A DNA stretch of 64,000 nt from Escherichia phage vB_EcoM_PTE-Eco09, in the sequence record PQ306574.1; one strand, written 5' to 3'. Shown in pieces: positions 512 through 34,687 of this stretch. Positions within the stretch are counted from its first letter, which is position 1, and each line of letters starts with the position of its first letter. Both the position numbers and the translations under genes were made by a program. The notes beneath the pieces are model-generated. The model worked only from the letters and a program-made list of their open reading frames with translations, did not search any database and was not told where the DNA came from.

Positions 512-1345
512 TTAAAATTCTCTTACACTACGTGGACCCGGTGGAGTCGGTGCAACTGGTATTGGAATATCACTAGAATATGATTCTTTGATAGTTCCGT
601 CCCAATCTTCTTGCTCGACGTCACGTTTAACGACCTCGTGATCCACTGATTCAAAATTACCGCTAGGATTCAATTCACGAGAATTGGCATGAAAATCAAG
701 ATAAATCGTTCTGATTTCCCCCTTAACGTCGGTAGCTGGAGGATATATAAACCCGATAAATTCGAACATAATGGTCCACTCAAGACGACGACGAGAAAAC
801 TTATCTTCGCCTACCTGTTCATCTGGAGTAATAGAACTAATTGTGACCTGAATATCTCGATCAATCCATACATCATTACCGTGTAGTTCTTTAATCTTAC
901 AGTTAAAATGAGGCTGGAAGTAAGGAAGAATCTGTTCAATTATTTGAAACATATCATCTTCGTTACGCGTATAAATCCCTAACTCGAAAGTAAACTTATA
1001 TGGTACAGGATTATATTGTGTTACGCTCCTGATTCCATCAGCCGTATATTTTGGTACTGTCTTATTTGCAATATTGGTTTTAAAGTTCTGGGCGTATGTC
1101 ATATCAATCAAAGAAAGACACATACGCGGTAAAATAGTTTCTACCTTTGCTACGTCTTCCTCACTTGAGATATTGTTATATTTGTCCAGACTCATCATGA
1201 ATTTTTCTTTCTTTGCGTAGGTGATAGGAACTTTAATAAACCGCTCACCGTCACTACGCACCCTTTTAATTTGTACGCCGGAGAATAAATTACCCAGCAA
1301 TACAATATACCGTCTAATTGACGAATTATAGTGCCAACCGAACAT
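512..1345 (-). CDS. 15: Tail sheath stabilizer / completion protein (T4 gp15-like)
   Basis: Resembles T4 gp15 from MFGWHYNSS onward (VPITYAKKEKFMM, YNPVPYKF, DFHANSRELNP); the track start at 1375 is TTG, trimmed to ATG 1343-1345 with AAGGGGG RBS. Confidence 0.85.
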   Translation of the reverse strand: MFGWHYNSSIRRYIVLLGNLFSGVQIKRVRSDGERFIKVPITYAKKEKFMMSLDKYNNISSEEDVAKVETILPRMCLSLIDMTYAQNFKTNIANKTVPKYTADGIRSVTQYNPVPYKFTFELGIYTRNEDDMFQIIEQILPYFQPHFNCKIKELHGNDVWIDRDIQVTISSITPDEQVGEDKFSRRRLEWTIMFEFIGFIYPPATDVKGEIRTIYLDFHANSRELNPSGNFESVDHEVVKRDVEQEDWDGTIKESYSSDIPIPVAPTPPGPRSVREF

Positions 1346-1371
1346 TTGACCCCCTTGTTTATGAGTATTTA

Positions 1372-2112
1372 TCAAAAATCGGCGAAAGGTGAACCCTTGC
1401 CATTAATAGGATCAAACGGATCAATAAAATCTTGTCCTTCGCTTCTGAATTGCTTATCTTCTTTGTACTGATCTAAGTTGATATCTGTTAACCCGTCCAG
1501 ATTAGTGATCGGTGCAAGATCCAGATCCGCAAACTCATCAACATTAATTCCCTCATTGTGTTGTAATTCTGGTCGCAATTCCTCACCGCTATACACGAAT
1601 TTCTCTGCAATAATTTTACGCATGGCATTTTTGCCAGCCTGAAAAAACGGCTGATATGGCTCAACGTAATTAATTTCAAATAAATCATTACTCATCGGAA
1701 TATAAATTAAGTCACCTGATTTTGGCTCTTGATCATCTACTTGATGTTTGAATAGGTTGGGGTTAACCGTAAAAGTTAATTCATCATTAGCTTGATACCC
1801 GAAACTAGAGAAGAAATTACCCGCTCCTTCATACCCATCAAATGAGTTAATATACGCCGCAAATTTCCATGCTTTAGTAAATTTGCTTTGAACATCCTCA
1901 CCAAAGATCATATCTGGCTTGACAAATTCACGAGGGATGTAATATAATTCTACACCTCGCATCTGAATAGCTTCGGCGACCATAACGTCGGCTAACGTCT
2001 GAGTATTTGTATATTTGTGAAAGTTCACATAAGGATTAAGAATCTCTGTTTGTCGTGTATTCTCATAATCCTTTTGCGATTCAAGGCGAGCAAAAAGAGT
2101 GTTGTTAAACAT
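1372..2112 (-). CDS. 14: Neck protein (T4 gp14-like)
   Basis: 246-aa ORF, ATG start; size and position between gp13 and gp15 as in T4 gp14. Confidence 0.85.
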
Positions 2113-2148: not shown

Positions 2149-3081
2149 TCAAATCATGAGGATGCCGAACGGAGGATCTAATAATTCTAGTTCTTGTCGC
2201 AATTTCTCAATGTCGGCGCGTGCTTCTTCAATGATTCGGATACCATCAACAGTGACACCGCCGAGTAATTGCAGACCTTGATGTTTAGCCATGATAGACC
2301 CCCACACCTCCTTAGTGAAAGCGGTTGCCATGTCTTTAACCCAACGGTTATTATATGCGCCCTGCTTGTTCTCACTGATCGGTCCCATGCCAGCAACAAT
2401 CCCGCTTAAACCAGCAGTTGGATTATCATAAACGGCGCTAATCCCGCCAGCGGTAGAACATCCTCCAGCATGAGCATAACCAGCAACCGCGCCGATCATA
2501 TCAGGAACGTCTACATAGCTTTTAACATATAATTCAACAACAATGAGATCACCTTCTCGGAAGTTTCCTGTTATCTTAAGTTGTCCGTTTGCGCTGTTAT
2601 ACCAATAATCTGGCAGCGGATTGAGCATATTTTGCATAGTGGCTCGATAGCTCATAAGCTGTTCGAAATATCCTAGATCACCACCCATTGCATTTGGACC
2701 ATAAAATTTACTACAGCCAGATCCTAAACCGCCATTTACACCCGCTAAACCCAACAGAAAGTCGGTGAACCACGGATAAACGGCAGTACCATCCATCGTA
2801 GCCGCGCTACCTACGTTTGTTCGAATTATTTTAGTTACTGCAAATACACCAGAATCGCTTAAATCAAATACCCCGTGTTGCGCTTGTTCTGCACTAACAC
2901 GAAATACTTTATATCCTTTATTCACACCATCGAAATGATATTCCCCATAGAGTTCTAGTGCTCTCTGAATACAATCGTAAATCTGGTCTTCTGTTACTTC
3001 TACGTTAATTACTGGTGCGCCTAAACGACGCAGAATAGCGTCTTTTAATTCTCTTGGGTTATTGGTTACATATCCTGACAT
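2149..3081 (-). CDS. 13: Neck protein (T4 gp13-like)
   Basis: 310-aa ORF (T4 gp13 is 309 aa); ATG start; synteny wac-13-14. Confidence 0.85.
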
Positions 3082-3090
3082 AATATCACC

Positions 3091-3120
3091 TATAAACGAA
3101 AAAGGGGCTTAACGCCCCTT
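3091..3120 (-). terminator. Hairpin plus U-run after fibritin gene (minus strand)
   Basis: AAGGGGC-TTAAC-GCCCCTT stem-loop; on the minus strand it is followed by TTTCGTTTATA. Confidence 0.5.
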
Positions 3121-3127
3121 TAATTTC

Positions 3128-4897
3128 TTATACCGGAGAAATCCCAAAGAGGAACTCTTTAATTTGTACTGGCTGTGCTACTGCTTCGGCAGATACACCC
3201 TTAATACGGATGTTAATCTGATCGCCCTTTTCAATATTTAGGAAAGCACTGGTAGAATAGCTGATCAATTCGTCTGTGCCGTAATGACCATTTTTCGCTT
3301 CATGTACCATCTGTCCATTTTTGAAAATCGCAACAATGAATGTTGCATTATGTTGAGCTTGTACAGCACAACGGAATACACAACGGAATAAACCTTTGTC
3401 CTGAACGGTAATAACAGATTCACTTTTCACCATTTGACGCGCATTAACTTCTTCCGCCATGTCGTTAAGCGGAATCTGTTTATAAACATCCTGTTCGTCC
3501 AGTTCAACCGTAATATCTGCGGTATTTTTAAATGCTCCAGCAGCATATGCAACTTGCACCCATTCTCCGCGCTTACGCAGATAATGGAAACCGTCATCAG
3601 GTACATCATCTACTTTGTTTCCGTTAGATGTTTGTAGCTCTTTGACGATTTTAATCACGCCTTTCTGAGTAAATGGATCTTCTGAACCATCATCGCCATA
3701 GATATCACTTGATAGTTTAATAACGCCAGCGGTCAAACCTGATTCGCGATCACCTACAATCTGTTCCATGTCCTGTACGCTTGCTTCTAACCGACCCTGA
3801 GTGTTTTCTACAACTTTAATACGTCCGGCTAGAGTATGTCGATCGCTGTCAGTGCCAATCTCATTGGAAAGTCGAACAACTTCACCGCGCAAACCGTCAG
3901 CACCGCTTACACCAACAACCTGTTTAAGATCTAAAAATTCTCGCTCTGTGTTGGTTAATCGATAATCAATGCTTCCGGCCGATTGAGGCGTTCCGATCTT
4001 ATTCTCGACAGCCAGAAGACGAGGACGAATACCGGAATCTACACCATTAACATCATTGTTTAGACGTTCATAATTAGTTCCCAGCGTAGTGACTTTAGTC
4101 CCGATATCAGGGATTGAATCAAACAAAATTGCTTTCTTGACTTCTAGAACTTCGTTTGATAAGTTAGCAATGTTTCTTGCGTTGGTGCGGAGACGAACAT
4201 ACACATTTTCTTGTGTTGCAAGAGACGTGTCGCCGATCTCACTGCGCATTTTGTTAACTTGTTTTGTTAACTCGCCTACGTCAGAATCTTGCCAGTCGTT
4301 TTCAAGCTGAATGATTCGGCGACCGTGGTCATTTAATGCTGCGGTATTCTGAATAACTCGGTATTTGATGCCAGAACCGGAACTGCCAGCATCAGGGGAA
4401 CCATTGATATTAAAGTTAGGATAAGAACCCATTTCTTGTTTGATGAAAGAAATGTCATCATAGATTGTTCTTGTGCTAGGATCGGCAGCGGGGCGATCAC
4501 CAATCTTGATGTTAAGTTCTGATACAGCGTCTACCGTTGTTTGTAGAGTTCTTGCTGTTTCTCCTAAGTTATCTTCGACGGATTCAACTTTTGCGACAGT
4601 CTGGTTAACCACATCAATGATACTTCCGTCAGAAATTACCCCTAAAGTTGTTTTAATATCGTTAACCGCCGTTACAACCTCGTTAACTTTAGCGACGGTT
4701 GATTTTGCGTTTTCGTTTACGCGTGCAACGTTTTCTTGAATTGCAACCGGGGCGCGGTTAAGCGTCCCGTCATTGCCAGTCTGTGTCGTTGCTGCGCTTA
4801 AACATTCGCCATTCTTGATCCAGTTAATACGGTGCTGTCCTTCGCTTGGTACACCGTCAACATGTGGGATCTCGTGGATGTTTAATTGTTCAATCAT
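3128..4897 (-). CDS. wac: Fibritin (whisker antigen control) with extra C-terminal domain
   Basis: N-terminus (HVDGVPSEGQHRINWIKNGE) matches T4 fibritin (LPFVDGPPAEGQSRISWIKNGE); long coiled-coil region; foldon-like GFHYLRKRGEWVQV followed by about 130 extra residues. Confidence 0.8.
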   Translation of the reverse strand: MIEQLNIHEIPHVDGVPSEGQHRINWIKNGECLSAATTQTGNDGTLNRAPVAIQENVARVNENAKSTVAKVNEVVTAVNDIKTTLGVISDGSIIDVVNQTVAKVESVEDNLGETARTLQTTVDAVSELNIKIGDRPAADPSTRTIYDDISFIKQEMGSYPNFNINGSPDAGSSGSGIKYRVIQNTAALNDHGRRIIQLENDWQDSDVGELTKQVNKMRSEIGDTSLATQENVYVRLRTNARNIANLSNEVLEVKKAILFDSIPDIGTKVTTLGTNYERLNNDVNGVDSGIRPRLLAVENKIGTPQSAGSIDYRLTNTEREFLDLKQVVGVSGADGLRGEVVRLSNEIGTDSDRHTLAGRIKVVENTQGRLEASVQDMEQIVGDRESGLTAGVIKLSSDIYGDDGSEDPFTQKGVIKIVKELQTSNGNKVDDVPDDGFHYLRKRGEWVQVAYAAGAFKNTADITVELDEQDVYKQIPLNDMAEEVNARQMVKSESVITVQDKGLFRCVFRCAVQAQHNATFIVAIFKNGQMVHEAKNGHYGTDELISYSTSAFLNIEKGDQINIRIKGVSAEAVAQPVQIKEFLFGISPV

Positions 4898-18048: not shown

Positions 18049-19848
18049 TCACCCAAGATCAATACGGCTACCATCAATTTTAACTGTACCAGATGCAATA
18101 TCTTTAACGCTTGCACCACAATTACGGGACCAGTCACCATTAACCTGATCTGATTTAGTGCCATTGACTGTCATATTAAAATTACCCTCAACGGTTAAAT
18201 CATAGTTACCTTTAATTGTTTCGGTAGTGTTACCATCGATCATTAATTCAGCATTACCCTTGACGTTAGCCGTCAAATTAGCGTCAAGCTGTGCGATAAC
18301 ATCACCAACAACATGCATGTTAGCAGCACCTTCAACGGTCTGATTAACATTGCCACGAATAAATTCAGTGACGTTACCATCAACGGTTTGCATCACATTA
18401 CCCATATAATAAACTTGCGCGTCACCTTCAACAACAACTTGCAAATTACCCTTGACGTTTACTTTCCGGCCTTGTTTAACGATCAGATAATCATCACCTT
18501 CAATCTTTTCTACCCTCGTTCCGTCCGGTCTGGTTTCTTCAAATGTACCAGAAGGATGTTTACGATGATATCGCTCATGAGAAGGAGTATCATCAATCTC
18601 GATAATATGACCGCTCTCTGACTCGTACACATGGTTATATGGATACCTTGCAGAATACGAACTCTTAGGCTCTTTAAACATGATTCGTGTGTCTTGTGGG
18701 GTAAACGGTGCTTCTGGGTCTTCTTCTGCTCTCTGCGTCTTATAGGCAGCAATACGGGCATTTCTCAAACGTGCTCGCGGATCATCCGAAATTGATTCCT
18801 CTTTCTTTGGAGCAATTACGCCATATGATTCTAAGTTACCAGTTAAAATAATTTTAGAAACACGGCTGGAGCGTCCTGGAGTTTGGTTAGCCCATACCGA
18901 TTGACGTAATCCATCATAGGCTTGTTTCCATTCTTCCGCTAACATCGCAGCAAGACTATTCTTAAATTTACCCAATCCTCCAACACCCATTTGAAACGCC
19001 ATATTTTCTAATGCCATACGACGTGAGGCATTACATTTATTATAGACAGGTGCAATTCGTGGATGTTTGCGCATATCACGACGAGTCTTTTCTATATCGT
19101 CGGCAAATACTTTACTAACTTCTTCGGCGGTAAGTCTTCCGTTTGTAACTTCACGCCCTACCAGCTTAGAAAGTTCATTATTGATAATACCAAGATCACT
19201 GGTTTTCTTATAAATGATCAAATGCCCGATGCCTATTGTCGGATATCCTTCTGAATCAAGATACCATTTCTCGCGATATCCCTCATCGCCCCGCAGCATT
19301 TTTTCTATTGTAAAATCAGGATTATCATCAACCGGAATTTGGTCTAATGGCTCGTCGTCTGGATTTACTGCAACTCCAGTGTTTTCATCTCTAATATAGA
19401 CACTATCAGGTTTTGTTGTTTGTCCGGTTTCTGGGTTAATACCGCCACGAGCAAGAATATTAACATCATTACCAATATAACGAGGATATGCACCAGAAGG
19501 GTCACAAAAACCCTCTGTAGTGAGTGGTTTCTCTGTATATTGTCCGGCAATAGTACCCAGAATAACGCAGTTTAAATAACGTTCATCTAAAGCCAAACCA
19601 AATACCATTGAACCTTCAACAATACCAGTAGGGCTTTGACCTATACCGGAGATCGCCGCGCTTGTAATATCTTGTACTGGCGTAATCCATAATAGATCTT
19701 CGGTTGGAAGACCTTGAATGTCACCGTGTGCGGATAGCGAGGGATGTATACCATGAATCCTAACCTGAACACGCCCCAGCATTAATGGGTCTTCCCTGTT
19801 TTCTACAATTCCGGTAAACCATTTAACGGAGTTATTAAACATTAGCAT
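18049..19848 (-). CDS. 5: Baseplate central spike with lysozyme domain (T4 gp5-like)
   Basis: 599 aa; central lysozyme-like segment (DSEGYPTIGIGHLI) and C-terminal beta-helix repeats (VxGN..). Confidence 0.9.
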   Translation of the reverse strand: MLMFNNSVKWFTGIVENREDPLMLGRVQVRIHGIHPSLSAHGDIQGLPTEDLLWITPVQDITSAAISGIGQSPTGIVEGSMVFGLALDERYLNCVILGTIAGQYTEKPLTTEGFCDPSGAYPRYIGNDVNILARGGINPETGQTTKPDSVYIRDENTGVAVNPDDEPLDQIPVDDNPDFTIEKMLRGDEGYREKWYLDSEGYPTIGIGHLIIYKKTSDLGIINNELSKLVGREVTNGRLTAEEVSKVFADDIEKTRRDMRKHPRIAPVYNKCNASRRMALENMAFQMGVGGLGKFKNSLAAMLAEEWKQAYDGLRQSVWANQTPGRSSRVSKIILTGNLESYGVIAPKKEESISDDPRARLRNARIAAYKTQRAEEDPEAPFTPQDTRIMFKEPKSSYSARYPYNHVYESESGHIIEIDDTPSHERYHRKHPSGTFEETRPDGTRVEKIEGDDYLIVKQGRKVNVKGNLQVVVEGDAQVYYMGNVMQTVDGNVTEFIRGNVNQTVEGAANMHVVGDVIAQLDANLTANVKGNAELMIDGNTTETIKGNYDLTVEGNFNMTVNGTKSDQVNGDWSRNCGASVKDIASGTVKIDGSRIDLG

Positions 19849-19859
19849 AATTAATCACC

Positions 19860-20414
19860 TTACACATCAGCCTTTTCCATTTCTCGAATGAATGCGTTAA
19901 TAAATTGTTTAATTTGTGTAGGATCTATGATCTTGATCTTGCGTCGTTCCTCATTACGGAGGATCGCATCTTCCAGTGTGTCTACTGCCGATAGTGCACC
20001 TTGAAACTGCAAATGACGATGATGAATATCCCCTTTATCATACCAATTGCTTGATCCTTTCGGATATTCGGTAAGATTCCAATACTTGTTTCCGTCAATA
20101 TCAACGTGGTATAATACTTGATTTCCTCCTACATTTGCATATCGCTGTTCGGCTGATTCATATGCTGTCTCTTGATCGGTGATCCAGTCATGGAATGGAT
20201 CGTATACGTCATTAATCATCAGCAAGATCCAGTAAAGTTGTTGGTTTCCGTATACTTCATATGCAACTTGTTCCGGTCGTGGACTACCTTGAATGTAATA
20301 TGTTTGTATGTTATAATCAGAAATTATTGCGTTGAAATATGCGCGGTAATTGCGCACAATGTCAGTAATCATCTTGCCGTTGTATTCAATGGCAGGGAAG
20401 AAAGAAAAGAGCAT
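19860..20414 (-). CDS. 53: Baseplate wedge protein (T4 gp53-like)
   Basis: 184 aa; YYIQGSPRPE..NQQLYWILLMINDVYDP resembles T4 gp53 YYIKGSPRPE..NPQLYWVLLMCNDNYDP. Confidence 0.85.
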   Translation of the reverse strand: MLFSFFPAIEYNGKMITDIVRNYRAYFNAIISDYNIQTYYIQGSPRPEQVAYEVYGNQQLYWILLMINDVYDPFHDWITDQETAYESAEQRYANVGGNQVLYHVDIDGNKYWNLTEYPKGSSNWYDKGDIHHRHLQFQGALSAVDTLEDAILRNEERRKIKIIDPTQIKQFINAFIREMEKADV

Positions 20415-20446
20415 TTTAGCACCCTCAATTGATAAATAGTATTATG

Positions 20447-20454
20447 TATTTATA
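20447..20454 (-). promoter_or_regulatory. T4-type late promoter motif TATAAATA upstream of gp53
   Basis: Plus strand TATTTATA about 33 nt upstream of the gp53 ATG, inside the inverted repeat GCACCCT..AGGGTGC (20419-20465). Confidence 0.55.
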
Positions 20455-20469
20455 ATAAAGGGTGCTAAA

Positions 20470-21165
20470 ATGGACTATCAAAAACAATATGAACGATTAA
20501 TTGAACGCGCAAAGCATAGAACGCTTGAAGGATATAAAGAAAAACATCATATTATTCCTCGTTGTATGGGAGGCGATGATAGTCCAGAAAATATAGTTGA
20601 GTTAACGGGGTCTGAACATTTTGTTGCTCATCAACTTTTAGCAAAAATGCATCCAACACATCACGGAATTGTACATGCGGCGAAAATATTGATGGGGTCT
20701 ACCAACTATAACAATAAACAATTTGAGTGGGTAAGAAAACTTGCGGTTGAGACTTCAAGAAAATTTCATACAGGAAGAAAAAGATCCGAAGAGACTAGAC
20801 GCAGAATATCAGAAGCAACTAAAGGAAAGAGAAAAGGAATTAAATTATCTGAGGAACATCGACAGAAATTATCTGCTTCATTAAAAGGTAGAGTGTTTAC
20901 AGAAGAACATAAAAGAAATATTGCGTCAAGAGAAATTACACAAGAATGGAGAGACAACATCTCTAAAGCGGGTAAGGGTAGAAAGTTGTCACAAGAAAAC
21001 GTAGAGAAATGGAAACGTATTCATAACACGCCAGAAATGAAACAAAAATATAGTGAATTGTCAAAGTCTCGTCCGTATTTCACCTGTCCTCATTGTGGAA
21101 AAACAGCCAATCAGGGAAATTATGTTAGATGGCATGGTGACAACTGCAAGAAGAAGGTGGTATAA
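20470..21165 (+). CDS. HNH homing endonuclease with NUMOD3-like repeats
   Basis: HHIIPRCMGG..N..EL..EH HNH motif, then repeated basic S/T-E-E-x-R-x-K motifs (GRKRSEETRRRISEATKG, KLSEEHRQKLSASLKG); inserted upstream of gp4. Confidence 0.8.
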   Translation: MDYQKQYERLIERAKHRTLEGYKEKHHIIPRCMGGDDSPENIVELTGSEHFVAHQLLAKMHPTHHGIVHAAKILMGSTNYNNKQFEWVRKLAVETSRKFHTGRKRSEETRRRISEATKGKRKGIKLSEEHRQKLSASLKGRVFTEEHKRNIASREITQEWRDNISKAGKGRKLSQENVEKWKRIHNTPEMKQKYSELSKSRPYFTCPHCGKTANQGNYVRWHGDNCKKKVV

Positions 21166-21638
21166 TGGGTAATTGCAACACATATAGGGGTAAATATAGA
21201 CCTGAAAACCCGGAGAAGTATAAAGGCGACCTGAAAAAAATCGTCTACAGGTCAAGTTGGGAATTACATATAATGAAATTTTTAGACCGCAATCCTAGAG
21301 TTGCAAAATGGGGATCTGAGACCGTAGTAATTCCTTATGAGTCATCAACAGACGGAAAAAGACACAGATACTTTATGGATTTTTACGTTAAGTTTGATGA
21401 TGGCAAGGAGCATTTATGGGAAGTTAAACCAGCTAAAGAGACAAGGCCACCGGAAAAGCCAAAAAGAATGACCGCAAAGACAAAGCAACGATATATGCAT
21501 GAAGTGTGGACGTACACAAAAAATACTGAAAAATGGTTAGCTGCCGTGAAATTATGCCAAAAGCATAACATGGAGTTTAAGATCATCACCGAACATGCAT
21601 TAAAGAAAGTGTTTGGCTTTAAAGGGCTTAACAAATAG
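21165..21638 (+). CDS. 4: Head completion protein (gp4-like), PD-(D/E)xK-like motif
   Basis: 157 aa (T4 gp4 about 150 aa); D..E.K motif (MDFYVKF..EHLWEVKP); position before gp2. Confidence 0.55.
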   Translation: MGNCNTYRGKYRPENPEKYKGDLKKIVYRSSWELHIMKFLDRNPRVAKWGSETVVIPYESSTDGKRHRYFMDFYVKFDDGKEHLWEVKPAKETRPPEKPKRMTAKTKQRYMHEVWTYTKNTEKWLAAVKLCQKHNMEFKIITEHALKKVFGFKGLNK

Positions 21639-21649
21639 AGGATAATATT

Positions 21650-22471
21650 ATGAGCGTATTTGAAATAATCACAGAAGACGAAAAGCCGTCTCCCCAAAAA
21701 CGAAAGTCTAAACAGTGGGTCGAATTGGGTGTAGAATTTGCGAAAGCAAAAGCCAAAGGAATGACAGCTAAAGCATTTGCAGATTCTAAGGGAATAGCCT
21801 ATGCGACTTTCACTAAAAGTATGTCTCGTTATGCAAGCGAAATTAAAACAGCAATAGAAGTTGAAAAACTAAAAGGGAAAGGCGCAAAGGGTCTCAATAA
21901 GCAGCAACGCGCAATGATGATGATTAATGATTTTCGTGCGTCTATGCGTGCTGTATCAAAGAGTCGTCCTAAAGAAAAATCACAGGAGTGGTTTATGAAG
22001 ACCATCAAGGATGGTGTAAAAGGTCATCAGGTAGTAAAACCACAAGTGGGACGGATCTATACTTATGCGTATAACCCAAAATATCGGGATTCTTTGCCAT
22101 TCTTTGACCGATACCCCTTGATTATCTGTCTAGGATTTGGTACATCTAAAGCGGGAAACGAGATTATGCTAGGTTTGAACTTGCACTATGCGCCACCTAA
22201 AGCTCGCCAGCAGTTCTTAGAAGCGTTGTTGCGACAATACGCGAGTACACCTACTCTTAGTAATAAAACTCGTTTAAAAATTAAATGGAGTGATGTTAAA
22301 GGTATGAGAGGCGCAGACCACATGATCAAAGCATATTTGCCTGGACACATCCAAACAAAACTGATTGAGATCGCACCAAAAGATTGGAGCACGGTTGTGT
22401 ATCTTCCGACCTACCAGTTTATGAGCAAAGACAAGAAATATGATGCTCGTAAGGTGTGGAAATTGTTTTAA
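21650..22471 (+). CDS. 2: DNA end protector protein (gp2-like)
   Basis: 273 aa (T4 gp2 274 aa); basic N-terminal region; called on size and synteny only. Confidence 0.5.
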   Translation: MSVFEIITEDEKPSPQKRKSKQWVELGVEFAKAKAKGMTAKAFADSKGIAYATFTKSMSRYASEIKTAIEVEKLKGKGAKGLNKQQRAMMMINDFRASMRAVSKSRPKEKSQEWFMKTIKDGVKGHQVVKPQVGRIYTYAYNPKYRDSLPFFDRYPLIICLGFGTSKAGNEIMLGLNLHYAPPKARQQFLEALLRQYASTPTLSNKTRLKIKWSDVKGMRGADHMIKAYLPGHIQTKLIEIAPKDWSTVVYLPTYQFMSKDKKYDARKVWKLF

Positions 22472-22527
22472 TGATTATAAAAATAGCGCCGCTGGTGACG
22501 GCGCTTTAATTTACAGGATATAAAAAT

Positions 22528-23670
22528 ATGACTAAAGAAAGAAAACCTAATTCAGTTCCTAGACCGTTCGGTGTATATCTAGAGAAGGTAAAAGAACATA
22601 TCCCATGTGGTTATGAATGGTATGGTCTAGTCGGAGAATACACCAACGCAAAGGATACTAGATTTAAGTTAAAATGTGATAAAGGACATACGTCAACTAT
22701 ATTTAGTTTAGATACTCTTAGACTGGGTGTAAAATGTCATGAATGCACTGGTCGCTTACGCTGGACCAAAGAAAGAATAGATGATGCATTAAAGACAATA
22801 TGCGGAAAATACACATTGATCGATATTCCTAAAGGATATACAGGTCAAATGACAGAATTACTAATGCATTGTCCTGATTGCAACAAAAACTTTACTAAGA
22901 AATTTATATATCTTTATCAAGGTCATGGTTGTCTCTGCGTTAAGGGTAAACGCTGGAATAGCGAAGAGTTGCTAACAGAGATGAGGAATAACCAAAAAGA
23001 CCACGAAGTCATTGGCTATGTGTCTGATTATAAAGATTTTTATGAAAGAAATATCTTAGTTAAATGCCCTAATGGACATGAATATACTGCATCCGGTCAC
23101 TCGTTTTTAGTTAATGGATCTAGATGTAAACTATGTTCAGGTAAAAACAAGAAGTCAACTGAGCAAGTAGTAAAGGAAATAACAGATAAGGCGATTGATA
23201 AAGGTGATACATTTGTTGATTTTGTTGGCGGTGAGTATAGAGGAATGCTAAAAACAAAATTGGTAATGCGTTGTAGTAGCGGACATGAATTTACGCCAAA
23301 CTTAGGAGACTACGTATCAAAAAATAGCGGTTGCCCTATGTGTAGCAATCATGGATTTAAGAGGAATAAACCTGCATACATTTATGTACAAACTTTATAC
23401 AAAGAAGATGTTGCGGTTGCTATAAAATTTGGTATAACCAACAACAGATTAATAAAAAGAATACAAAACCAATCTTCAAAATCTATATTTCGTCATGAGT
23501 TGACATTTTATAAAAAATACGATAACGGTGATGATGCTCTTTCTATGGAATGTGCAATAAAGAAAAAGTATAAAGGTTTCTATGTTAGTAAAGAAGATAT
23601 GCCCGATGGATATACAGAAACGCTATCCATATCAGAGCTACAAAACGTCATTGATATGATCAATAGTTAA
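22528..23670 (+). CDS. Zinc-ribbon repeat protein with C-terminal GIY-YIG-like (T5orf172-type) domain
   Basis: Four CxxGHE[FY]..G..CxxC repeats; C-terminal KPAYIYVQ..IKFGIT..R..E resembles a GIY-YIG/T5orf172 fold; splits the gp2-gp3 pair. Confidence 0.5.
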   Translation: MTKERKPNSVPRPFGVYLEKVKEHIPCGYEWYGLVGEYTNAKDTRFKLKCDKGHTSTIFSLDTLRLGVKCHECTGRLRWTKERIDDALKTICGKYTLIDIPKGYTGQMTELLMHCPDCNKNFTKKFIYLYQGHGCLCVKGKRWNSEELLTEMRNNQKDHEVIGYVSDYKDFYERNILVKCPNGHEYTASGHSFLVNGSRCKLCSGKNKKSTEQVVKEITDKAIDKGDTFVDFVGGEYRGMLKTKLVMRCSSGHEFTPNLGDYVSKNSGCPMCSNHGFKRNKPAYIYVQTLYKEDVAVAIKFGITNNRLIKRIQNQSSKSIFRHELTFYKKYDNGDDALSMECAIKKKYKGFYVSKEDMPDGYTETLSISELQNVIDMINS

Positions 23671-23674
23671 GATT

Positions 23675-23700
23675 AAGCCCGTCAATGACGGGCTTTTTTT
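23675..23700 (+). terminator. Rho-independent terminator
   Basis: AAGCCCGTCAATGACGGGCTT hairpin followed by TTTTTTT. Confidence 0.6.
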
Positions 23701-23701
23701 A

Positions 23702-23956
23702 TTATAGATCGATAGCATGAGCATAACCATGTAAGAAGTCTTTTAATTCTTCCTTATTGGTAACACGCTGTAAAATCTCTAATGCCTTGTCGCGATCACG
23801 TAATGCACCTGAAAGGGATTTTATTTGATCATCCCTTTCTGCAATCTGCTTAAGCAGATCTGTATTGCATTTAGACAAATAGAGAACTTCACCCCGCAAT
23901 GTTGCTAATTCGTTATCCAGACGATCATAGAGTTTTAACAAAATGTCTTCTGTCAT
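23702..23956 (-). CDS. Hypothetical coiled-coil protein, antisense to the surrounding plus-strand genes
   Basis: 84-aa ORF, ATG with GAGGA RBS; heptad-like Leu pattern; lone minus-strand gene in a plus block. Confidence 0.35.
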   Translation of the reverse strand: MTEDILLKLYDRLDNELATLRGEVLYLSKCNTDLLKQIAERDDQIKSLSGALRDRDKALEILQRVTNKEELKDFLHGYAHAIDL

Positions 23957-29755: not shown

Positions 29756-29808
29756 TATGACGCTCAAGAATATGTTTTTTTAACTTCGTAGGTGCTTCCA
29801 TTCTTTCA

Positions 29809-29955
29809 ATGCTATATCTTGTGATTGTATGGATGGGCGACTATGAATTAACTAACGATGAAAATTTGACAGTGTTTACTGTCTTGACGATGATCATTTA
29901 CACTGTCTTTCTTGTCTTGGATTTTATTGTGTTTCTTTACAAAACGGTGACTTGA
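29809..29955 (+). CDS. Possible small hydrophobic protein (48 aa)
   Basis: ATG ORF filling the gap between neighbours; weak RBS. Confidence 0.3.
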   Translation: MLYLVIVWMGDYELTNDENLTVFTVLTMIIYTVFLVLDFIVFLYKTVT

Positions 29956-30152
29956 TGACGATTAGTAAAAATGATATTGGTTTTGTTGCGGGTATCGCTA
30001 GCGTCTTTACTGTTGTTATTTTGCTAATGCTTTTACCCGGTGTATTCTCTGACCAGATTGAATTGTATGTAGCTTTTATCTGTTGCATTTATACTTGGTT
30101 TGCAATGTTTGTGATTAGTCTAATTATGCAATTCGTCGTTAACAAATTTTAG
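29955..30152 (+). CDS. Small membrane protein (65 aa)
   Basis: ATG with ACGGTGA RBS (the track start is TTG). Confidence 0.45.
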   Translation: MTISKNDIGFVAGIASVFTVVILLMLLPGVFSDQIELYVAFICCIYTWFAMFVISLIMQFVVNKF

Positions 30153-30173
30153 ATTTAATGTGAGGATTATATT

Positions 30174-30987: not shown

Positions 30988-31176
30988 ATGGCGTTTTGTC
31001 TATGGTTGCTTATAGTATGCTTTGTAATGGGTTTATGCTTCTATACTGGCGTATTCTGTTTTGTCGCCTGGATAGACGGCGGTTTCTCTAATATCATTTT
31101 GCTTGCCGGATCAATTGCCTCGTTTCTGTTGATATGGCTTTTTTCTTATTTGTTTGGTGAATGGGATTTATTATGA
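30988..31176 (+). CDS. Small membrane protein (62 aa)
   Basis: TGGAGGG RBS; hydrophobic. Confidence 0.5.
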   Translation: MAFCLWLLIVCFVMGLCFYTGVFCFVAWIDGGFSNIILLAGSIASFLLIWLFSYLFGEWDLL

Positions 31177-31352
31177 ACAAATATATGTTTTGGGCGACCC
31201 TTGCCTATGTTGTGATTGCGGTAGTATGGGGATTCTGTGTTATTGTCGCTTCTCTGATCTGGTGGGAATCACTTGGCGCGGGTTGTCTTATTAGCGGCGC
31301 ATCATGTCTTATCACTGGCGTGATTGTTGGTTTTCTTGTGTCGGAGGATTGA
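31173..31352 (+). CDS. Small membrane protein (59 aa)
   Basis: ATGA overlap with the upstream ORF; hydrophobic. Confidence 0.45.
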   Translation: MNKYMFWATLAYVVIAVVWGFCVIVASLIWWESLGAGCLISGASCLITGVIVGFLVSED

Positions 31353-31354
31353 CA

Positions 31355-31570
31355 ATGGTTTTCTTCGGTCTTATTATAATGGTGCTTAATGTCATTTGTG
31401 GCGTTGCTATGTTAGCTATGGCCTTTACTGTTCCTATGTCTGTTGACAGCGCCGCGTCAGTAGGTGTGTTGGGAATTGTAAACCTGTTTACTGCCATAGC
31501 ATGTTGGATCACCGGACGCGATGAGGTAATGTATTACTTTTATAAACGTAAACAGAGAAAAGGAAAATAA
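31355..31570 (+). CDS. Small membrane protein (71 aa)
   Basis: ATG with GGAGGA RBS; hydrophobic. Confidence 0.5.
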   Translation: MVFFGLIIMVLNVICGVAMLAMAFTVPMSVDSAASVGVLGIVNLFTAIACWITGRDEVMYYFYKRKQRKGK

Positions 31571-31571
31571 T

Positions 31572-31763
31572 ATGAAATTTGCATTTGGTTTTACCGTGAT
31601 GTTGATTATTGCTCTGAGTATGTGTACCGGAATGCTTGTCTTTGGCTTAACAAACGGATTTAGCATTTATAATAATCCGTGGGTTGATTGTGGAATGGTT
31701 GTCGTTAATGCTATCCTTATTGGTGCTAATACAAGAACTCTATGCAGGATCGCCGGAATCTAA
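31572..31763 (+). CDS. Small membrane protein (63 aa)
   Basis: ATG; hydrophobic; directly upstream of the endolysin. Confidence 0.5.
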   Translation: MKFAFGFTVMLIIALSMCTGMLVFGLTNGFSIYNNPWVDCGMVVVNAILIGANTRTLCRIAGI

Positions 31764-31791
31764 ATATTATCACTCACAAAGGGGGTGAATA

Positions 31792-32181
31792 ATGTTTAAA
31801 TTATCTCAAAGAAGCAAAGATCGGCTTGTTGGTGTACATCCAGACCTGGTAAAAGTCGTTCATCGTGCGTTAGAACTGACTCCGGTCGATTTTGGTATTA
31901 CGGAAGGTGTGCGTAGTCTAGAAACGCAAAAGAAATATGTTGCGGAAGGTAAATCTAAGACTATGAAATCTCGTCATCTTCACGGTTTCGCGGTTGATGT
32001 TGTAGCGTATCCGAAAGATAAAGATACATGGAACATGAAATATTACCGCATGATCGCTGATGCGTTTAAACAAGCTGGTCGAGAATTGGGTGTTCCTGTT
32101 ATCTGCGGTGTTGATTGGGTTACTTTTAAAGACGGACCGCATATGGAACTCGATAAAAAGGTATATCCAGACCCGGTATAA
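31792..32181 (+). CDS. Endolysin, L-alanyl-D-glutamate peptidase (M15 family, T5 Lys-like)
   Basis: RALELTPVDFGITEGVRS, SRHLHGFAVD, AFKQAGRELGV, GPHMELD resemble T5 endolysin as recalled; H-x6-D and H zinc ligands. Confidence 0.8.
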   Translation: MFKLSQRSKDRLVGVHPDLVKVVHRALELTPVDFGITEGVRSLETQKKYVAEGKSKTMKSRHLHGFAVDVVAYPKDKDTWNMKYYRMIADAFKQAGRELGVPVICGVDWVTFKDGPHMELDKKVYPDPV

Positions 32182-32190
32182 CTAAAATAA

Positions 32191-32213
32191 AGCCAGCTTA
32201 GTCTCTGGCTTTG
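32191..32213 (+). terminator. Hairpin after the endolysin (weak terminator)
   Basis: AGCCAG-CTTAGTCT-CTGGCT stem; short U-run. Confidence 0.35.
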
Positions 32214-32226
32214 TGAGGATTATAAA

Positions 32227-32802
32227 ATGGCTTTTAAATATTGGGATGAATCCCTACAAAACGAGATAAAACTTAGATATGCTCATATAGAGGGTATCTT
32301 ATATTATAGAGTCGATAGTAAAGCTATCAAAGGACGACCATTAGGGAGTAGATATAAACACGGCGATTTAGTTAAAGTCAGAACAAATAAAGATGGTCAT
32401 CTTAGATTTTGGCATAGTAGAGATGACGGTCTTCCTAGAGTTCATCTATTCGTGCATAGGGTTGTTTGGTTTCTAGAACATGGGACGCAAGTTAGATTAA
32501 TTGATCATATTGACGGTAATCCTGCGAATAACAATCCTCCAAATCTTAGGGAGGCAACCGACGCGCAAAATCAACATAATAGAAAGAAGAAGTCTAAAAA
32601 GTTTTCTAGTGTGTATAAGGGTGTTAGTAAGTGTAACAGGAAGGATTTGCGTAAGAAATGGAGAGCTAGTATAATGGTCAACCTACAAAGACATGTTCTT
32701 GGACAATATGACACAGAAATCGAAGCTGCAATCGCTTATGATAATGCAGCTAGGAAATTTTATGGAGAATATGCTCTATTGAATTTCCCAGATCCAAAAT
32801 GA
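32227..32802 (+). CDS. HNH homing endonuclease with AP2 DNA-binding domain
   Basis: HIDGNPANNNPPNLREATDAQNQHN HNH motif plus AP2-like YKGVS..WRASI..YDTEIEAAIAYDNAARKFYGE. Confidence 0.75.
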   Translation: MAFKYWDESLQNEIKLRYAHIEGILYYRVDSKAIKGRPLGSRYKHGDLVKVRTNKDGHLRFWHSRDDGLPRVHLFVHRVVWFLEHGTQVRLIDHIDGNPANNNPPNLREATDAQNQHNRKKKSKKFSSVYKGVSKCNRKDLRKKWRASIMVNLQRHVLGQYDTEIEAAIAYDNAARKFYGEYALLNFPDPK

Positions 32803-32864
32803 AATATTAACCATCAACGGGGAGACAATCTAAGGATCTCTCCCCGTTCACTGGAGACTTGACA

Positions 32865-33350
32865 ATGAATATTGATGTAAAATTAGAAAGTAAAGATTTG
32901 ATTTATGCTGCGTGTGTTTCTGCCGTAGATGGCATCATAGAACGCCGTAAGCGACGCAATTTTGCTGATGACCTAGATTCCATTGTCTCAATCAATTTAG
33001 GCCGTCAGACAGGGCATACAGACGCTACAATCAAGTTATATGACCATTATACGAGAAAAGGCTATAGTGTCTTTATCGTTTCAACGACGCGGGAACATGC
33101 CAAAACGATCCGAGATCGCGGTCGCGGTGAAAATGTAAATATTTCAAATGTAGATTGTACGTCGATCCGAACTTTCCTGAATCCGATCACATGGCGAGGT
33201 CGTAGTCTTGACAAAACAATTTTTATCCTAGATACTACCATGCGCGGATTTACTGACAGCGTATTGCAGTTTTTAGAATTGAATCGACTTAGTGTTGGGA
33301 TGGGTAATGTAGAAGACCAACCTATTTTCATTGGCTTAGGTATCAACTAA
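32865..33350 (+). CDS. Hypothetical protein (161 aa)
   Basis: ATG with CTGGAGA RBS (the track start is TTG). Confidence 0.5.
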   Translation: MNIDVKLESKDLIYAACVSAVDGIIERRKRRNFADDLDSIVSINLGRQTGHTDATIKLYDHYTRKGYSVFIVSTTREHAKTIRDRGRGENVNISNVDCTSIRTFLNPITWRGRSLDKTIFILDTTMRGFTDSVLQFLELNRLSVGMGNVEDQPIFIGLGIN

Positions 33351-33475
33351 TGAAAAATAAAGATAGCGTAGCTCGTCGATTTCGTGCTACAATTAAAAAG
33401 AATCGTAAAGTCCAACCTGATAAACTCTATGGTGTTTTGGTTGGTAAAATTAATGACGAACGTCCTGATCTATAA
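33350..33475 (+). CDS. Possible small basic protein (41 aa)
   Basis: ATG overlapping the upstream stop; MKNKDSVARRFRATIKKNRK..; speculative. Confidence 0.25.
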   Translation: MKNKDSVARRFRATIKKNRKVQPDKLYGVLVGKINDERPDL

Positions 33476-33485
33476 GAGGTGATTT

Positions 33486-33902
33486 ATGGAATTTAAAGCA
33501 ATTCAAATCATGAAAGGTGAGCATAAAGGTACTATTATCGGTGGACATTTCGCGCCTATGATTCTGGTATCCGAACCGAAAGCCCTGATCGGCGCTAAAG
33601 TAATTGTTAGTAAAACTTTCGCAGAAGACCATGTGATCACCGCAGAAGACGTCGATTCGCTGGCACTGCACACAACTAGCTTCCGTCCGGTGATTGTAGA
33701 TAATGGTGCTCCGGTTGTCGAAGGTGGTCAGCATTTGAATGTTAACGTATTGTTACGAGAAATGTTGCTGGACGCTGTTGAACATCCTGAGAAGTACCCG
33801 CAGCTTACAATTCGCGTTTCTGGTTACGCAGTGCGCTTCAATAGTCTGACTCCAGACCAGCAGCGTGACGTTATCGCTCGTACCTTTACCGAATCTCTCT
33901 AA
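33486..33902 (+). CDS. grcA: Autonomous glycyl radical cofactor (GrcA/YfiD-like)
   Basis: C-terminal [49 protein letters not shown] is near-identical to E. coli GrcA as recalled. Confidence 0.85.
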
Positions 33903-33912
33903 TTTTTCATCA

Positions 33913-33946
33913 AGCCAATCCGAAAAGGGTTGGCTTTTTCTTTTTA
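33913..33946 (+). terminator. Rho-independent terminator
   Basis: AGCCAATCCGAAAAGGGTTGGCT hairpin followed by TTTTTCTTTTT. Confidence 0.65.
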
Positions 33947-33988
33947 TGATGTTATGATGTAATCTCTTAATCAATTGAGGGTTTAATT

Positions 33989-34687
33989 ATGCATACAATG
34001 GTTAAAATGGTCTTCGGATCTCACTTATACGGCCTTGATACTGAAAACTCCGATAAAGATTATCGTGGTATCTTTGTTCCGACTGCGAAAGAAATTATCT
34101 TAGGATCGATGAAAGAACACTATGATCAAAGCACTAGCGGTCAAGGGATCAAGAACACCAAAGACGACATTGACGTTAATATGTTCAGTCTAAAACGGTT
34201 TATCAATCTGGCATGTAAAGGCGATATCGGCGCTATTGACATGGTGCACGCTCCTAGTAACATGTTGATTGAATCCTCCAGAGAATGGGAATACATCCGA
34301 ACACATCGCGATAAATTCTATCATGTTGGGATGTGTGGTTTGTCTGGTTATCTCAAAAAGCAGGTAGCAAAATCTGAAAAGTATTTCAGTAACTGGAAAG
34401 ATCTTTCTCATGCTCTGCGTGTTGGTTATCAGCTACTTGAAATCTATCAGACAGGTGATTTACAATTCCCGCTCGCGCGACGTTCTTCTATTTTAGCGTG
34501 TAAGTTAGGAGAAAGAACCTTTGATAATGTGCGGGAAGAATTGAAAGATCTCTACGAGCGTGTTAAACTCGCTCGTGAAGAGGCAAAGAAAAACGGTATG
34601 CCGGAAGAACCAGATGTTGACTTTTGGAAAGATCTATTAGAATATATTCATCTGACAGTTGTTCTGGAACACTATACCCGTGGTTAG
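33989..34687 (+). CDS. Pol-beta-superfamily nucleotidyltransferase-like protein
   Basis: N-terminal GSHLYGLDTENSDKDYRGIF matches the GS-x(9-11)-DxD nucleotidyltransferase signature; helical C-terminal half. Confidence 0.55.
   Translation: MHTMVKMVFGSHLYGLDTENSDKDYRGIFVPTAKEIILGSMKEHYDQSTSGQGIKNTKDDIDVNMFSLKRFINLACKGDIGAIDMVHAPSNMLIESSREWEYIRTHRDKFYHVGMCGLSGYLKKQVAKSEKYFSNWKDLSHALRVGYQLLEIYQTGDLQFPLARRSSILACKLGERTFDNVREELKDLYERVKLAREEAKKNGMPEEPDVDFWKDLLEYIHLTVVLEHYTRG

Follow-up and report, generated by a model that had tools for sequence, protein, structure and literature searches.

Two free-standing HNH genes in the genome of Escherichia phage vB_EcoM_PTE-Eco09, here designated ORF A and ORF B, are very probably homing endonuclease genes, passed by intronless homing from one Krischvirus to another during co-infection. 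Both occur sporadically at a fixed site among collinear relatives, and in both cases carriers and empty-site genomes differ directly beside the insertion, in the form expected of a co-conversion tract or immune target. Judged from their sequence, these linked recoded patches bear the hallmark of intronless homing accompanied by co-conversion and target-site immunity. The analysis covered a stretch of 64,000 nucleotides of record PQ306574.1 (the window), for which a preliminary description had proposed two free-standing HNH endonuclease genes of different architecture; both open reading frames were found (Table 1), and their interpretation as homing endonucleases is supported. The count of two proved incomplete, as a third nuclease cassette (ORF C) had been overlooked.

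The window derives from a Krischvirus, that is, an RB49/JSE-like T4-type coliphage; megablast searches with positions 19000-23800 and 31000-34000 returned Krischvirus records only (RB49, JSE, Phi1, GEC-3S and others), at 91-99.5% identity. ORF A is surrounded by the T4-type genes 5.1, 5 and 53 on the minus strand and 4 and 2 on the plus strand. The proposed location of both genes at junctions between conserved genes, namely between genes 53 and 4 and between the endolysin gene and its downstream neighbour, holds, with the correction that the ORF B cassette reaches back into the endolysin gene, starting at position 32101 with the recoded 3' end of the latter.

Table 1. Positions of the genes, recoded patches and signals of the window that are discussed in the text.
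Feature	Position	Strand	Basis or remark
Gene 53	19860-20414	-	Pfam Phage_gp53, 2e-58
Intergenic region between genes 53 and 4	20415-20469	+	Comparison with HNH-less phages
Near-consensus late promoter GATAAATA	20431-20438	+	Intergenic region between genes 53 and 4
Perfect TATAAATA for gene 53	20447-20454	-	Intergenic region between genes 53 and 4
ORF A, mob-like free-standing HNH endonuclease (231 aa, ATG start)	20470-21165	+	Pfam, PHROG, alignment; HNH motif at residues 22-54, about 5 NUMOD3-like helical repeats at about 102-185, CCHC zinc knuckle at 206-226
Gene 4 (head completion/closure), host gene of the ORF A cassette	21165-21638	+	phrog_218 head closure, 5e-61
ORF A-linked recoded patch at the 5' end of gene 4 (nt 1-118, codons 1-40)	21165-21282	+	Comparison with RB49 and JSE
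Recoded 3' part of gene 2 (nt about 347-822), linked to ORF C	21996-22471	+	About 30% divergent from RB49, MIZ6 and Brandy
ORF C, third sporadic nuclease gene (380 aa)	22528-23670	+	CapR, DUF4379, T5orf172, phrog_681
M15 endolysin	31792-32181	+	Upstream neighbour of ORF B
ORF B-linked recoded patch at the 3' end of the endolysin gene (last 81 nt, 27 codons)	32101-32181	+	Comparison with RB49
Hairpin AAAGCCAGCTTAGTCTCTGGCTTT, part of the ORF B cassette	32189-32212	+	Between the endolysin stop and ORF B
ORF B, HNH(H-N-N)-AP2 free-standing endonuclease (191 aa, ATG start)	32227-32802	+	Pfam, alignment
vs.8	32859-33350		Downstream neighbour of ORF B

Domain architecture of the three nuclease genes

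ORF A displays the features of the T4 MobA-E type, being a free-standing gene whose product carries an N-terminal HNH motif, NUMOD3 repeats and a C-terminal zinc knuckle. The NUMOD3 match exceeded the Pfam cut-off (29.6 bits, cut-off 20.4), and phrog_655, annotated as 'homing endonuclease', matched at 3e-64. The HNH motif itself was sub-threshold in Pfam (PF01844, 18.3 bits, cut-off 21.4), and a single-sequence phmmer search against the PDB retrieved no HNH structure; it was the family profile alone that found one, with the motif YkEkHHiiPrcmGGsDdkdNlVeLtareH aligning to the HNH of McrA (6ghc, E 1e-3) and, in addition, to the HNH motif of a group II intron maturase (En, E 7e-3). The His base, structural Asn and His/Asn metal ligand that define the HNH (beta-beta-alpha-Me) superfamily were all identified, residues H26, H27, N41, H50 and H54 being invariant in an alignment of 24 homologues, in which the zinc-knuckle ligands C206-C209-H222-C226 were nearly invariant as well. 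An AlphaFold2 model (overall pLDDT of 87, about 96 over residues 1-70) contains the corresponding beta-beta-alpha element, with strands at residues 24-27 and 42-45 and a helix at 47-60; a fold search of the PDB with this model gave only non-significant local matches to HNH and zinc-finger structures (best E 0.4).

ORF B belongs to the HNH-AP2 class, with an HNH_3-type nuclease of the D-H...N...N form (40.2 bits, Pfam cut-off 24.8) and a C-terminal AP2/ERF domain. The latter fell below the Pfam cut-off (25.2 bits against 33.3, E 2e-5), and phmmer comparison with plant AP2 structures gave matches to WRI1 (1.4e-9), TEM1 (4.8e-5) and ERF1 (8e-4) that included the motif YD.AA...G..A..NFP. Residues D93-H94, N106 and N115 align with the D-H...N...N motif of I-HmuI. 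Thus, the HNH motifs are intact, as the preliminary description had stated, and closer alignment revealed no loss of catalytic residues in either protein. Distinct DNA-binding modules had likewise been recognized correctly as NUMOD3 in ORF A and AP2 in ORF B, and to these the C-terminal zinc knuckle of ORF A, previously missed, has to be added.

The product of ORF C matches CapR (6e-13), DUF4379 zinc-finger repeats (3e-8) and phrog_681 (2e-81), and its isolated C-terminus scored 20.1 bits against the GIY-YIG-related T5orf172 domain, whose cut-off is 20. Its architecture is that of the T5orf172 homing endonucleases described in PMC10448857, and both the T5orf172/CapR-type domains and a variable presence near essential genes were found: ORF C occurs in 4 of 64 matching Krischvirus records, the named carriers being JSE, G37-3 and AV108, and is absent from RB49, MIZ6, Brandy and ELT4. 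No paralogue of ORF A, B or C turned up in a search of the rest of the window.

Neither ORF A nor ORF B is new in kind or in annotation. Database entries match both proteins at 99-100% identity, and several of these entries carry the label 'homing endonuclease', including the ORF A copies of MIZ6 and ELT4, and the gene classes were tabulated for JSE and RB49 between 2006 and 2010: Table 5 of PMC2993671 lists one HNH-AP2 and one other HNH gene in RB49, and two mob-like and two HNH-AP2 genes in JSE, and the AP2-HNH class was noted in RB49 and RB43 (PMC1524935).

Insertion sites and recoded patches among Krischviruses

Neither gene is universally present at its site. ORF A was found in 5 of the 64 matching Krischvirus records (Brandy, ELT4, MIZ2, MIZ3 and MIZ6), at 99-99.7% identity, and ORF B in 13 of 79, corresponding to 12 phages including JSE. 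The original RB49 record, Phi1, MIZ6 and the majority of the others lack the latter gene; where it occurs, most of the 13 records share a product of 100% identity, the value for phiS being 99.5%. Comparison of the insertion sites with those of relatives, as the preliminary description had suggested, showed RB49 to be empty at both sites, JSE to be empty for ORF A and MIZ6 to be empty for ORF B.

Gene 4 of RB49 and JSE starts at exactly the position at which ORF A starts in the window. Upstream of it, the intergenic region is the same in carriers and non-carriers through the sequence ATGG, save a single SNP at 20419, where RB49 and JSE carry T and the window, MIZ6 and KMB43 carry G. It follows that ORF A uses the upstream signals and the RBS of gene 4 (AAAGGGTG). 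No sigma-70-like or TATAAATA promoter private to ORF A or ORF B was found, and the ORF A leader contains no RBS-sequestering hairpin of the kind known from mobE, segB and I-TevI (folding z = 0.0). At the other end, the TAA stop of ORF A overlaps the ATG of gene 4 (TAATG), and a new Shine-Dalgarno sequence for gene 4, AAGGTGG, lies inside the 3' end of ORF A.

The gene 4 reading frame that follows is sharply divided. Relative to RB49 and JSE, 43 mismatches fall within the 118 nt of the patch and 3-5 within the remaining 356 nt, the codon changes in the patch being 14 synonymous and 12 non-synonymous, and at 97% identity or above this allele occurs in the five ORF A records only. The whole cassette differs between the window and Brandy at about 3 sites in about 1 kb, the flanks differing by 1-4%. 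From its sequence, the patch region as it stands in HNH-less phages is predicted to be the target position of ORF A, and the patch to be the self-immunity determinant. A third gene 4 allele, of the KMB43 type, is found without any HNH gene; thus, variation at the gene 4 site is not always HNH-linked.

The patch beside ORF B lies at the opposite end of its neighbouring gene. The endolysin gene differs from that of RB49 by 31 mismatches in its last 81 nt and by 5 in its first 309 nt, so that nucleotide divergence of the two linked patches amounts to 36-38%. The recoded endolysin end keeps the D-W..FKDGPH motif, and this allele was found in the 13 ORF B records only; the corresponding region in HNH-less phages is the predicted target position of ORF B. 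At the right end, the last 13-14 nt or so of ORF B before its stop (CCCAGATCCAAAAT, encoding PDPK) are the retained end of the recipient's RB49-type endolysin ORF. The stop that follows is TGA in the window and TAA in RB49, CCCAGATCCAAAAT(G/A)A thus being the original end of the endolysin ORF; this places the right junction of the cassette at about 32786, and ORF B therefore terminates in a remnant (PDPK and stop) of the invaded gene. The hairpin AAAGCCAGCTTAGTCTCTGGCTTT that precedes ORF B may be a leaky terminator or may occlude the RBS. The ORF B leader can pair its Shine-Dalgarno sequence, although weakly (z = -1.7, 11 of 200 shuffles folding as well), and at this value an RBS-sequestering hairpin comparable with those of mobE, segB and I-TevI is not claimed for ORF B.

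The recoded 3' part of gene 2, linked to ORF C, is identical to that of JSE. The window thus joins an ORF A cassette of the Brandy/ELT4 type with a JSE-type cassette 1 kb away, a combination seen in no GenBank phage record and in one metagenomic contig (L011). The earlier suggestion that the nuclease genes mark likely recombination hot-spots is borne out by this combination, as well as by the sharply bounded diverged patch that adjoins each nuclease gene and is restricted to nuclease-carrying genomes. Over 49 kb compared between the window and JSE, 4 of the 5 indels are endonuclease genes; nuclease cassettes constitute most indels between close Krischviruses, which matters for engineering and comparing therapeutic coliphages. 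As a separate observation, nrdD is intact in the window and split in JSE.

The ORF A lineage and gene 4 in other genera

Relatives of ORF A with 40-62% identity immediately precede gene 4 in several Straboviridae genera besides Krischvirus, as represented by Yersinia phage phiR1-RT (Tegunavirus), Pectobacterium phage PM2 (Mosugukvirus, a truncated copy of 129 aa), Aeromonas phage 25 (Tulanevirus, gene order 5.1, HNH, 4), Escherichia phage UPEC07 (Gaprivervirus) and Klebsiella phage Roth16, whose nearest relatives are Jiaodaviruses. The same placement, at the same 40-62% identity, was seen in all 6 metagenomic contigs examined. It is gene 4, not gene 53, with which this single HNH lineage is associated, and it has followed gene 4 through several genera of the Straboviridae. 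A scan of IMG/VR with the ORF A clade profile gave relatives of at most 41% full-length identity, higher values being reached by short segments only, and gene 4 lay directly downstream of the relative in 4 of 80 loci. At the nrdA/nrdB (MobE) site lies a 213-aa paralogue that shares 41% identity with ORF A across 99% of its length, and a more distant paralogue lies between the terminase and portal genes of a P22-like phage.

Between genera, identity of the HNH proteins to ORF A of the window (45-61%) is about that of the flanking gp4, gp2, gp53 and gp5 (46-59%), so long vertical co-residence with loss could account for the distribution. The conservation of the site across genera fits such ancient co-residence as well as cross-genus transfer; a 2010 review saw 'no convincing evidence' of such elements moving across phage clusters (PMC2993671).

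In some of these relatives gene 4 itself is interrupted. A single extra nucleotide breaks the gene at the same place in phiR1-RT, PM2, Roth16 and two metagenomic contigs, all of which carry an ORF A orthologue. The first 36 codons or so are conserved in one frame and the other 117-118 codons, from the conserved Met37, in the +1 frame, with a break sequence that reads ...TGG GAR NNN TTT N and then ATG (R/K) TGG...; in Jiaodavirus, Tegunavirus and Mosugukvirus the form is GGGAR-NNN-UUU-N directly before the Met37 codon. The break lies 9 nt upstream of the position matching the end of the patch in the window. Gene 4 is intact in the HNH-less relatives JEC (a Jiaodavirus, like the nearest relatives of Roth16), VR5 and PEi26. 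Roth16 and JEC are identical in gene 4 downstream of the Met37 ATG and highly diverged upstream of it, exactly as is seen at the patch of the window. The frame-broken patch was found at 90% identity or above in at least 39 Klebsiella phage records, so the arrangement is viable and does not stem from faulty sequencing; in the annotated frame-broken records the patch adjoins a homing-endonuclease or HNH gene, and many of them list two 'head closure/completion' coding sequences.

A +1 slip on UUU_N would restore a gp4 of normal length (WEQF-MMRWLD, compared with WEQY-MMRWLD in JEC), and a GGGAR element is located 3 nt upstream of the slip site, as in prfB; the GGGAG could equally serve as a Shine-Dalgarno sequence for independent initiation at the ATG. 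On this basis we tentatively suggest, while regarding it as rather less probable than its contrary, that the ORF A lineage is a gene-4-specific 'Mob' element, composed of the HNH gene and a recoded 5' segment of gene 4 as immunity determinant, which became frame-broken in Jiaodavirus, with at least 39 viable isolates, and in Tegunavirus and Mosugukvirus, in all of which gp4 would have to be made by Shine-Dalgarno-stimulated +1 frameshifting of the prfB type or as two polypeptides. If true, it would join mobA/gene 60 as the second natural example of a homing endonuclease tied to translational recoding, or to fracture, of the gene it targets. In the literature searched we found no prior description of the gene 4 site or of a split gene 4, which does not prove that there is none. 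The frame-broken gene 4 is the only part of this work possibly of interest to specialists in recoding and mobile elements.

Homing, rival readings and known systems

T4 MobE provides the closest guide to how ORF A might act: its gene is promoterless and co-transcribed with the gene upstream, the enzyme introduces a strand-specific nick at nt 122-126 of the downstream nrdB of T2, and the recombination points fall within the first 189 nt, at the 5' end, of nrdB (PMC2790892). By virtue of the same geometry, ORF A would nick or cut HNH-less gene 4 within its first 120 nt or so, probably around codons 35-40, binding DNA through its NUMOD3 repeats and zinc knuckle; repair would then copy ORF A together with the 5' end of the donor gene 4, the recoded patch conferring immunity on the carrier. 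The same logic would apply to ORF B and the endolysin 3' end, with binding through the AP2 domain and a site within the last 80 nt or so of the endolysin gene. In each case the enzyme would attack the abutting essential gene of a genome without the nuclease, and recombinational repair from the carrier genome would bring in the nuclease gene along with an adjoining donor stretch that keeps the protein functional and, through its nucleotide differences, shields the carrier from its own enzyme. Having no promoter of their own, ORF A would be expressed from the promoter and RBS of gene 4, with translational coupling to gene 4, and ORF B by read-through from the endolysin gene past the hairpin. We infer cleavage activity, target position and patch-conferred immunity for both proteins by analogy. 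Cleavage itself and marker exclusion, the latter raised in the preliminary description as a possible contribution against related phages, are likewise inferred from the behaviour of T4 MobE (PMC2790892).

Two other readings of the same genes were weighed. The first, which we consider improbable, holds that benefit to the phage, more than selfish homing as such, explains why the nucleases are kept, be it through exclusion of competing Krischviruses, by stimulating recombination or the amplification of genes close by, or, in the case of ORF A, through a role in head completion or the processing of DNA ends beside genes 4 and 2. T4 homing endonucleases do partly exclude T2 markers (reviewed in PMC2988022), and SegB is reported to promote amplification of anti-defence loci (PMC13096335). 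ORF A is co-transcribed and translationally coupled with gene 4, whose product has a TnsA-like nuclease fold, and between genera the conservation of the HNH protein equals or exceeds that of the structural proteins on either side. Against this, just 8% of Krischvirus records contain ORF A and about 16% contain ORF B, so both genes are dispensable, and benefit alone leaves the tightly linked recoded patches unexplained. T4-type headful packaging is not known to require an HNH partner, which also counts against such a role, and the idea of ORF A as a packaging accessory of the HNH-terminase kind was rejected, the gene being dispensable and sporadic. A phage benefit is, moreover, largely compatible with homing and not exclusive of it.

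According to the second, equally doubtful reading, ORF A and ORF B are relics in decay or without catalytic activity, or else DNA-binding proteins recruited as regulators (for instance with AP2 acting as a transcription factor), which hitch-hike on ordinary recombination, the patches being its joints. In principle, ordinary mosaic recombination might have left its joints beside nuclease genes by chance, and the KMB43-type allele shows gene 4 varying in the absence of any HNH gene. Defunct endonucleases are known, such as I-TevIII (PMC2790892), AP2 and CapR domains have taken on regulatory roles in other systems (PMC10448857), the PM2 orthologue of ORF A is truncated, and the activity of ORF A and ORF B is putative. 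However, both genes are of full length with all catalytic ligands invariant and the zinc ligands invariant or nearly so, near-identical copies on different backbones point to recent spread, the patch alleles were never found without the nuclease, and the same lineage holds the same site in several genera.

Intronless homing thus remains our preferred reading, and under it the behaviour of ORF A and ORF B mainly confirms the textbook biology of homing endonucleases in the T4 family. The exact cassette boundaries yield concrete target predictions, namely nt 1-120 or so of RB49 gene 4 and the last 81 nt of the RB49 endolysin gene.

Among known systems, ORF B resembles the HNH-AP2 proteins of RB49 (ORF040c), JSE, RB43, RB16 and FelixO1, the class of Magnani et al. 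(2004), in joining an N-terminal I-HmuI-like H-N-N nuclease to a C-terminal AP2 domain, and it is 100% identical to a JSE protein; paralogues with 42-49% identity occupy other sites in RB49, G37-3, RB16 and Klebsiella phages (PMC1524935). It differs from them in that its lineage was found only at the endolysin 3' end of Krischviruses, where the cassette has displaced the end of the endolysin ORF, whose old remnant now supplies the last codons of ORF B. The similarity to I-HmuI of SPO1 (PDB 1U3E) is weak, the core aligning to residues 25-102 with D-H, N and N conserved (E 6e-3); I-HmuI is intron-encoded and carries a NUMOD/helix-turn-helix tail, whereas ORF B is free-standing and has an AP2 module. 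Since I-HmuI, like MobE, is a strand-specific nickase, nicking would be the expected chemistry for ORF B.

ORF A shares with MobE the HNH type (HHIiP...GG...N...EH..AH), the NUMOD3 repeats and a C-terminal zinc knuckle of the form CPHCGK...WH..C. Both genes are promoterless and lie directly upstream of the targeted essential gene (predicted, for ORF A), and the MobE nick site in nrdB is paralleled by the end of the ORF A-linked patch at gene 4 nt 118. The two differ in site, gene 4 instead of nrdB, and so presumably in specificity; furthermore, ORF A overlaps the start codon of its predicted target gene and mobilises no neighbouring intron.

The T4 mobA/gene 60 'hop' cassette is an HNH gene linked to a translational recoding element in its target gene. 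The present case resembles it in that the nuclease gene forms one mobile unit with a modified segment of the essential gene beside it, which in the Jiaodavirus, Tegunavirus and Mosugukvirus relatives holds a +1 frame break; the comparison draws partly on bioRxiv 10.1101/2022.08.31.505936. In the window, by contrast, the gene 4 patch is in frame and consists of substitutions only, and the relatives of the window display a frame break of 1 nt in place of a 50-nt bypass.

A third nuclease cassette and indels relative to JSE

The preliminary description named two endonuclease genes in the window, a count that proved incomplete, as a third sporadic nuclease cassette had been overlooked, constituted by ORF C together with the gene 2 3' portion to which it is linked, which is diverged. 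The JSE copy of this cassette is identical to that of the window, and RB49, MIZ6, Brandy and ELT4 all lack it. Two further endonuclease genes are carried by JSE at sites that are empty in the window, including one within nrdD, which in the window is a single intact ORF. Across 49 kb, the sole non-nuclease indel with respect to JSE was found in a small-ORF region.

Coordinates of nuclease cassettes, indels and associated genes
Feature	Sequence	Coordinates	Strand	Description
ORF C	window	22528-23670	+	380-aa protein; CapR/DUF4379 zinc fingers and T5orf172 domain
Gene 2, 3' part	window	21996-22471	+	~30% diverged
Empty site	window	33959-33976		vs.6/nrdC.11 junction; 525 nt extra in JSE
Empty site	window	about 51780		within nrdD; JSE gene split by 760 nt extra
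nrdD	window	50911-52773		620 aa
Non-nuclease indel	window	29760-30158		397-nt segment in place of 197 nt of JSE
Four hydrophobic ORFs	window	30988-31763		62-88 aa
ORF B 3' end	window	32785-32802		PDPK and stop
Gene 4	window	21165-21638		encodes the head completion protein gp4
Gene 4, third allele	KMB43 (L114)	689-1165		no HNH gene
Frame-broken gene 4	Klebsiella phage Roth16 (L031)	1202-1652		
Frame-broken gene 4	phiR1-RT (L004)	3220-3670		
Frame-broken gene 4	PM2 (L005)	3018-3468		
Frame-broken gene 4	metagenomic contigs L018, L022			

Endolysin surroundings

The 3' end of ORF B, the HNH-AP2 endonuclease gene, consists of the last codons of the displaced RB49-type endolysin ORF; therefore, the endolysin C-terminus YPDP(V/K) occurs twice, on either side of the inserted nuclease gene. 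Directly 5' of the endolysin gene, four small and very hydrophobic ORFs are arranged in a row. Their annotation in RB49 and JSE does not go beyond "hypothetical"; they could encode holin-like or other membrane proteins.

Gene 4 alleles and the fold of gp4

In phages of other genera carrying an orthologue of ORF A, the mob-like HNH endonuclease gene, the reading frame of gene 4 is broken by 1 nt (+1) at GGGAR-NNN-TTT-N, directly 5' of the conserved Met37 codon. This broken patch is present in at least 39 Klebsiella phage isolates, and gene 4 is intact in the HNH-less relatives JEC, VR5 and PEi26. The break implies that gp4 is produced either by +1 frameshifting or in two pieces, and may represent an immunity scar left where the HNH enzyme has its target.

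Within Krischvirus, a third gene 4 allele, found in KMB43 as well as in JEP8, Whisky, ELT3, FL04 and JK32, displays ~24% divergence spread across the whole gene, and shares with the window gene the residues ELHIMKF at the patch junction. The background that donated cassette A (ORF A and the linked recoded 5' patch of gene 4) may be similar to this allele, or the allele may constitute a naturally resistant site. The window gp4 matches Pfam Tn7_TnsA-like_N at 4e-21, a restriction-endonuclease-like fold, and because of this match the product of the "structural" target gene itself looks like a nuclease-fold protein.
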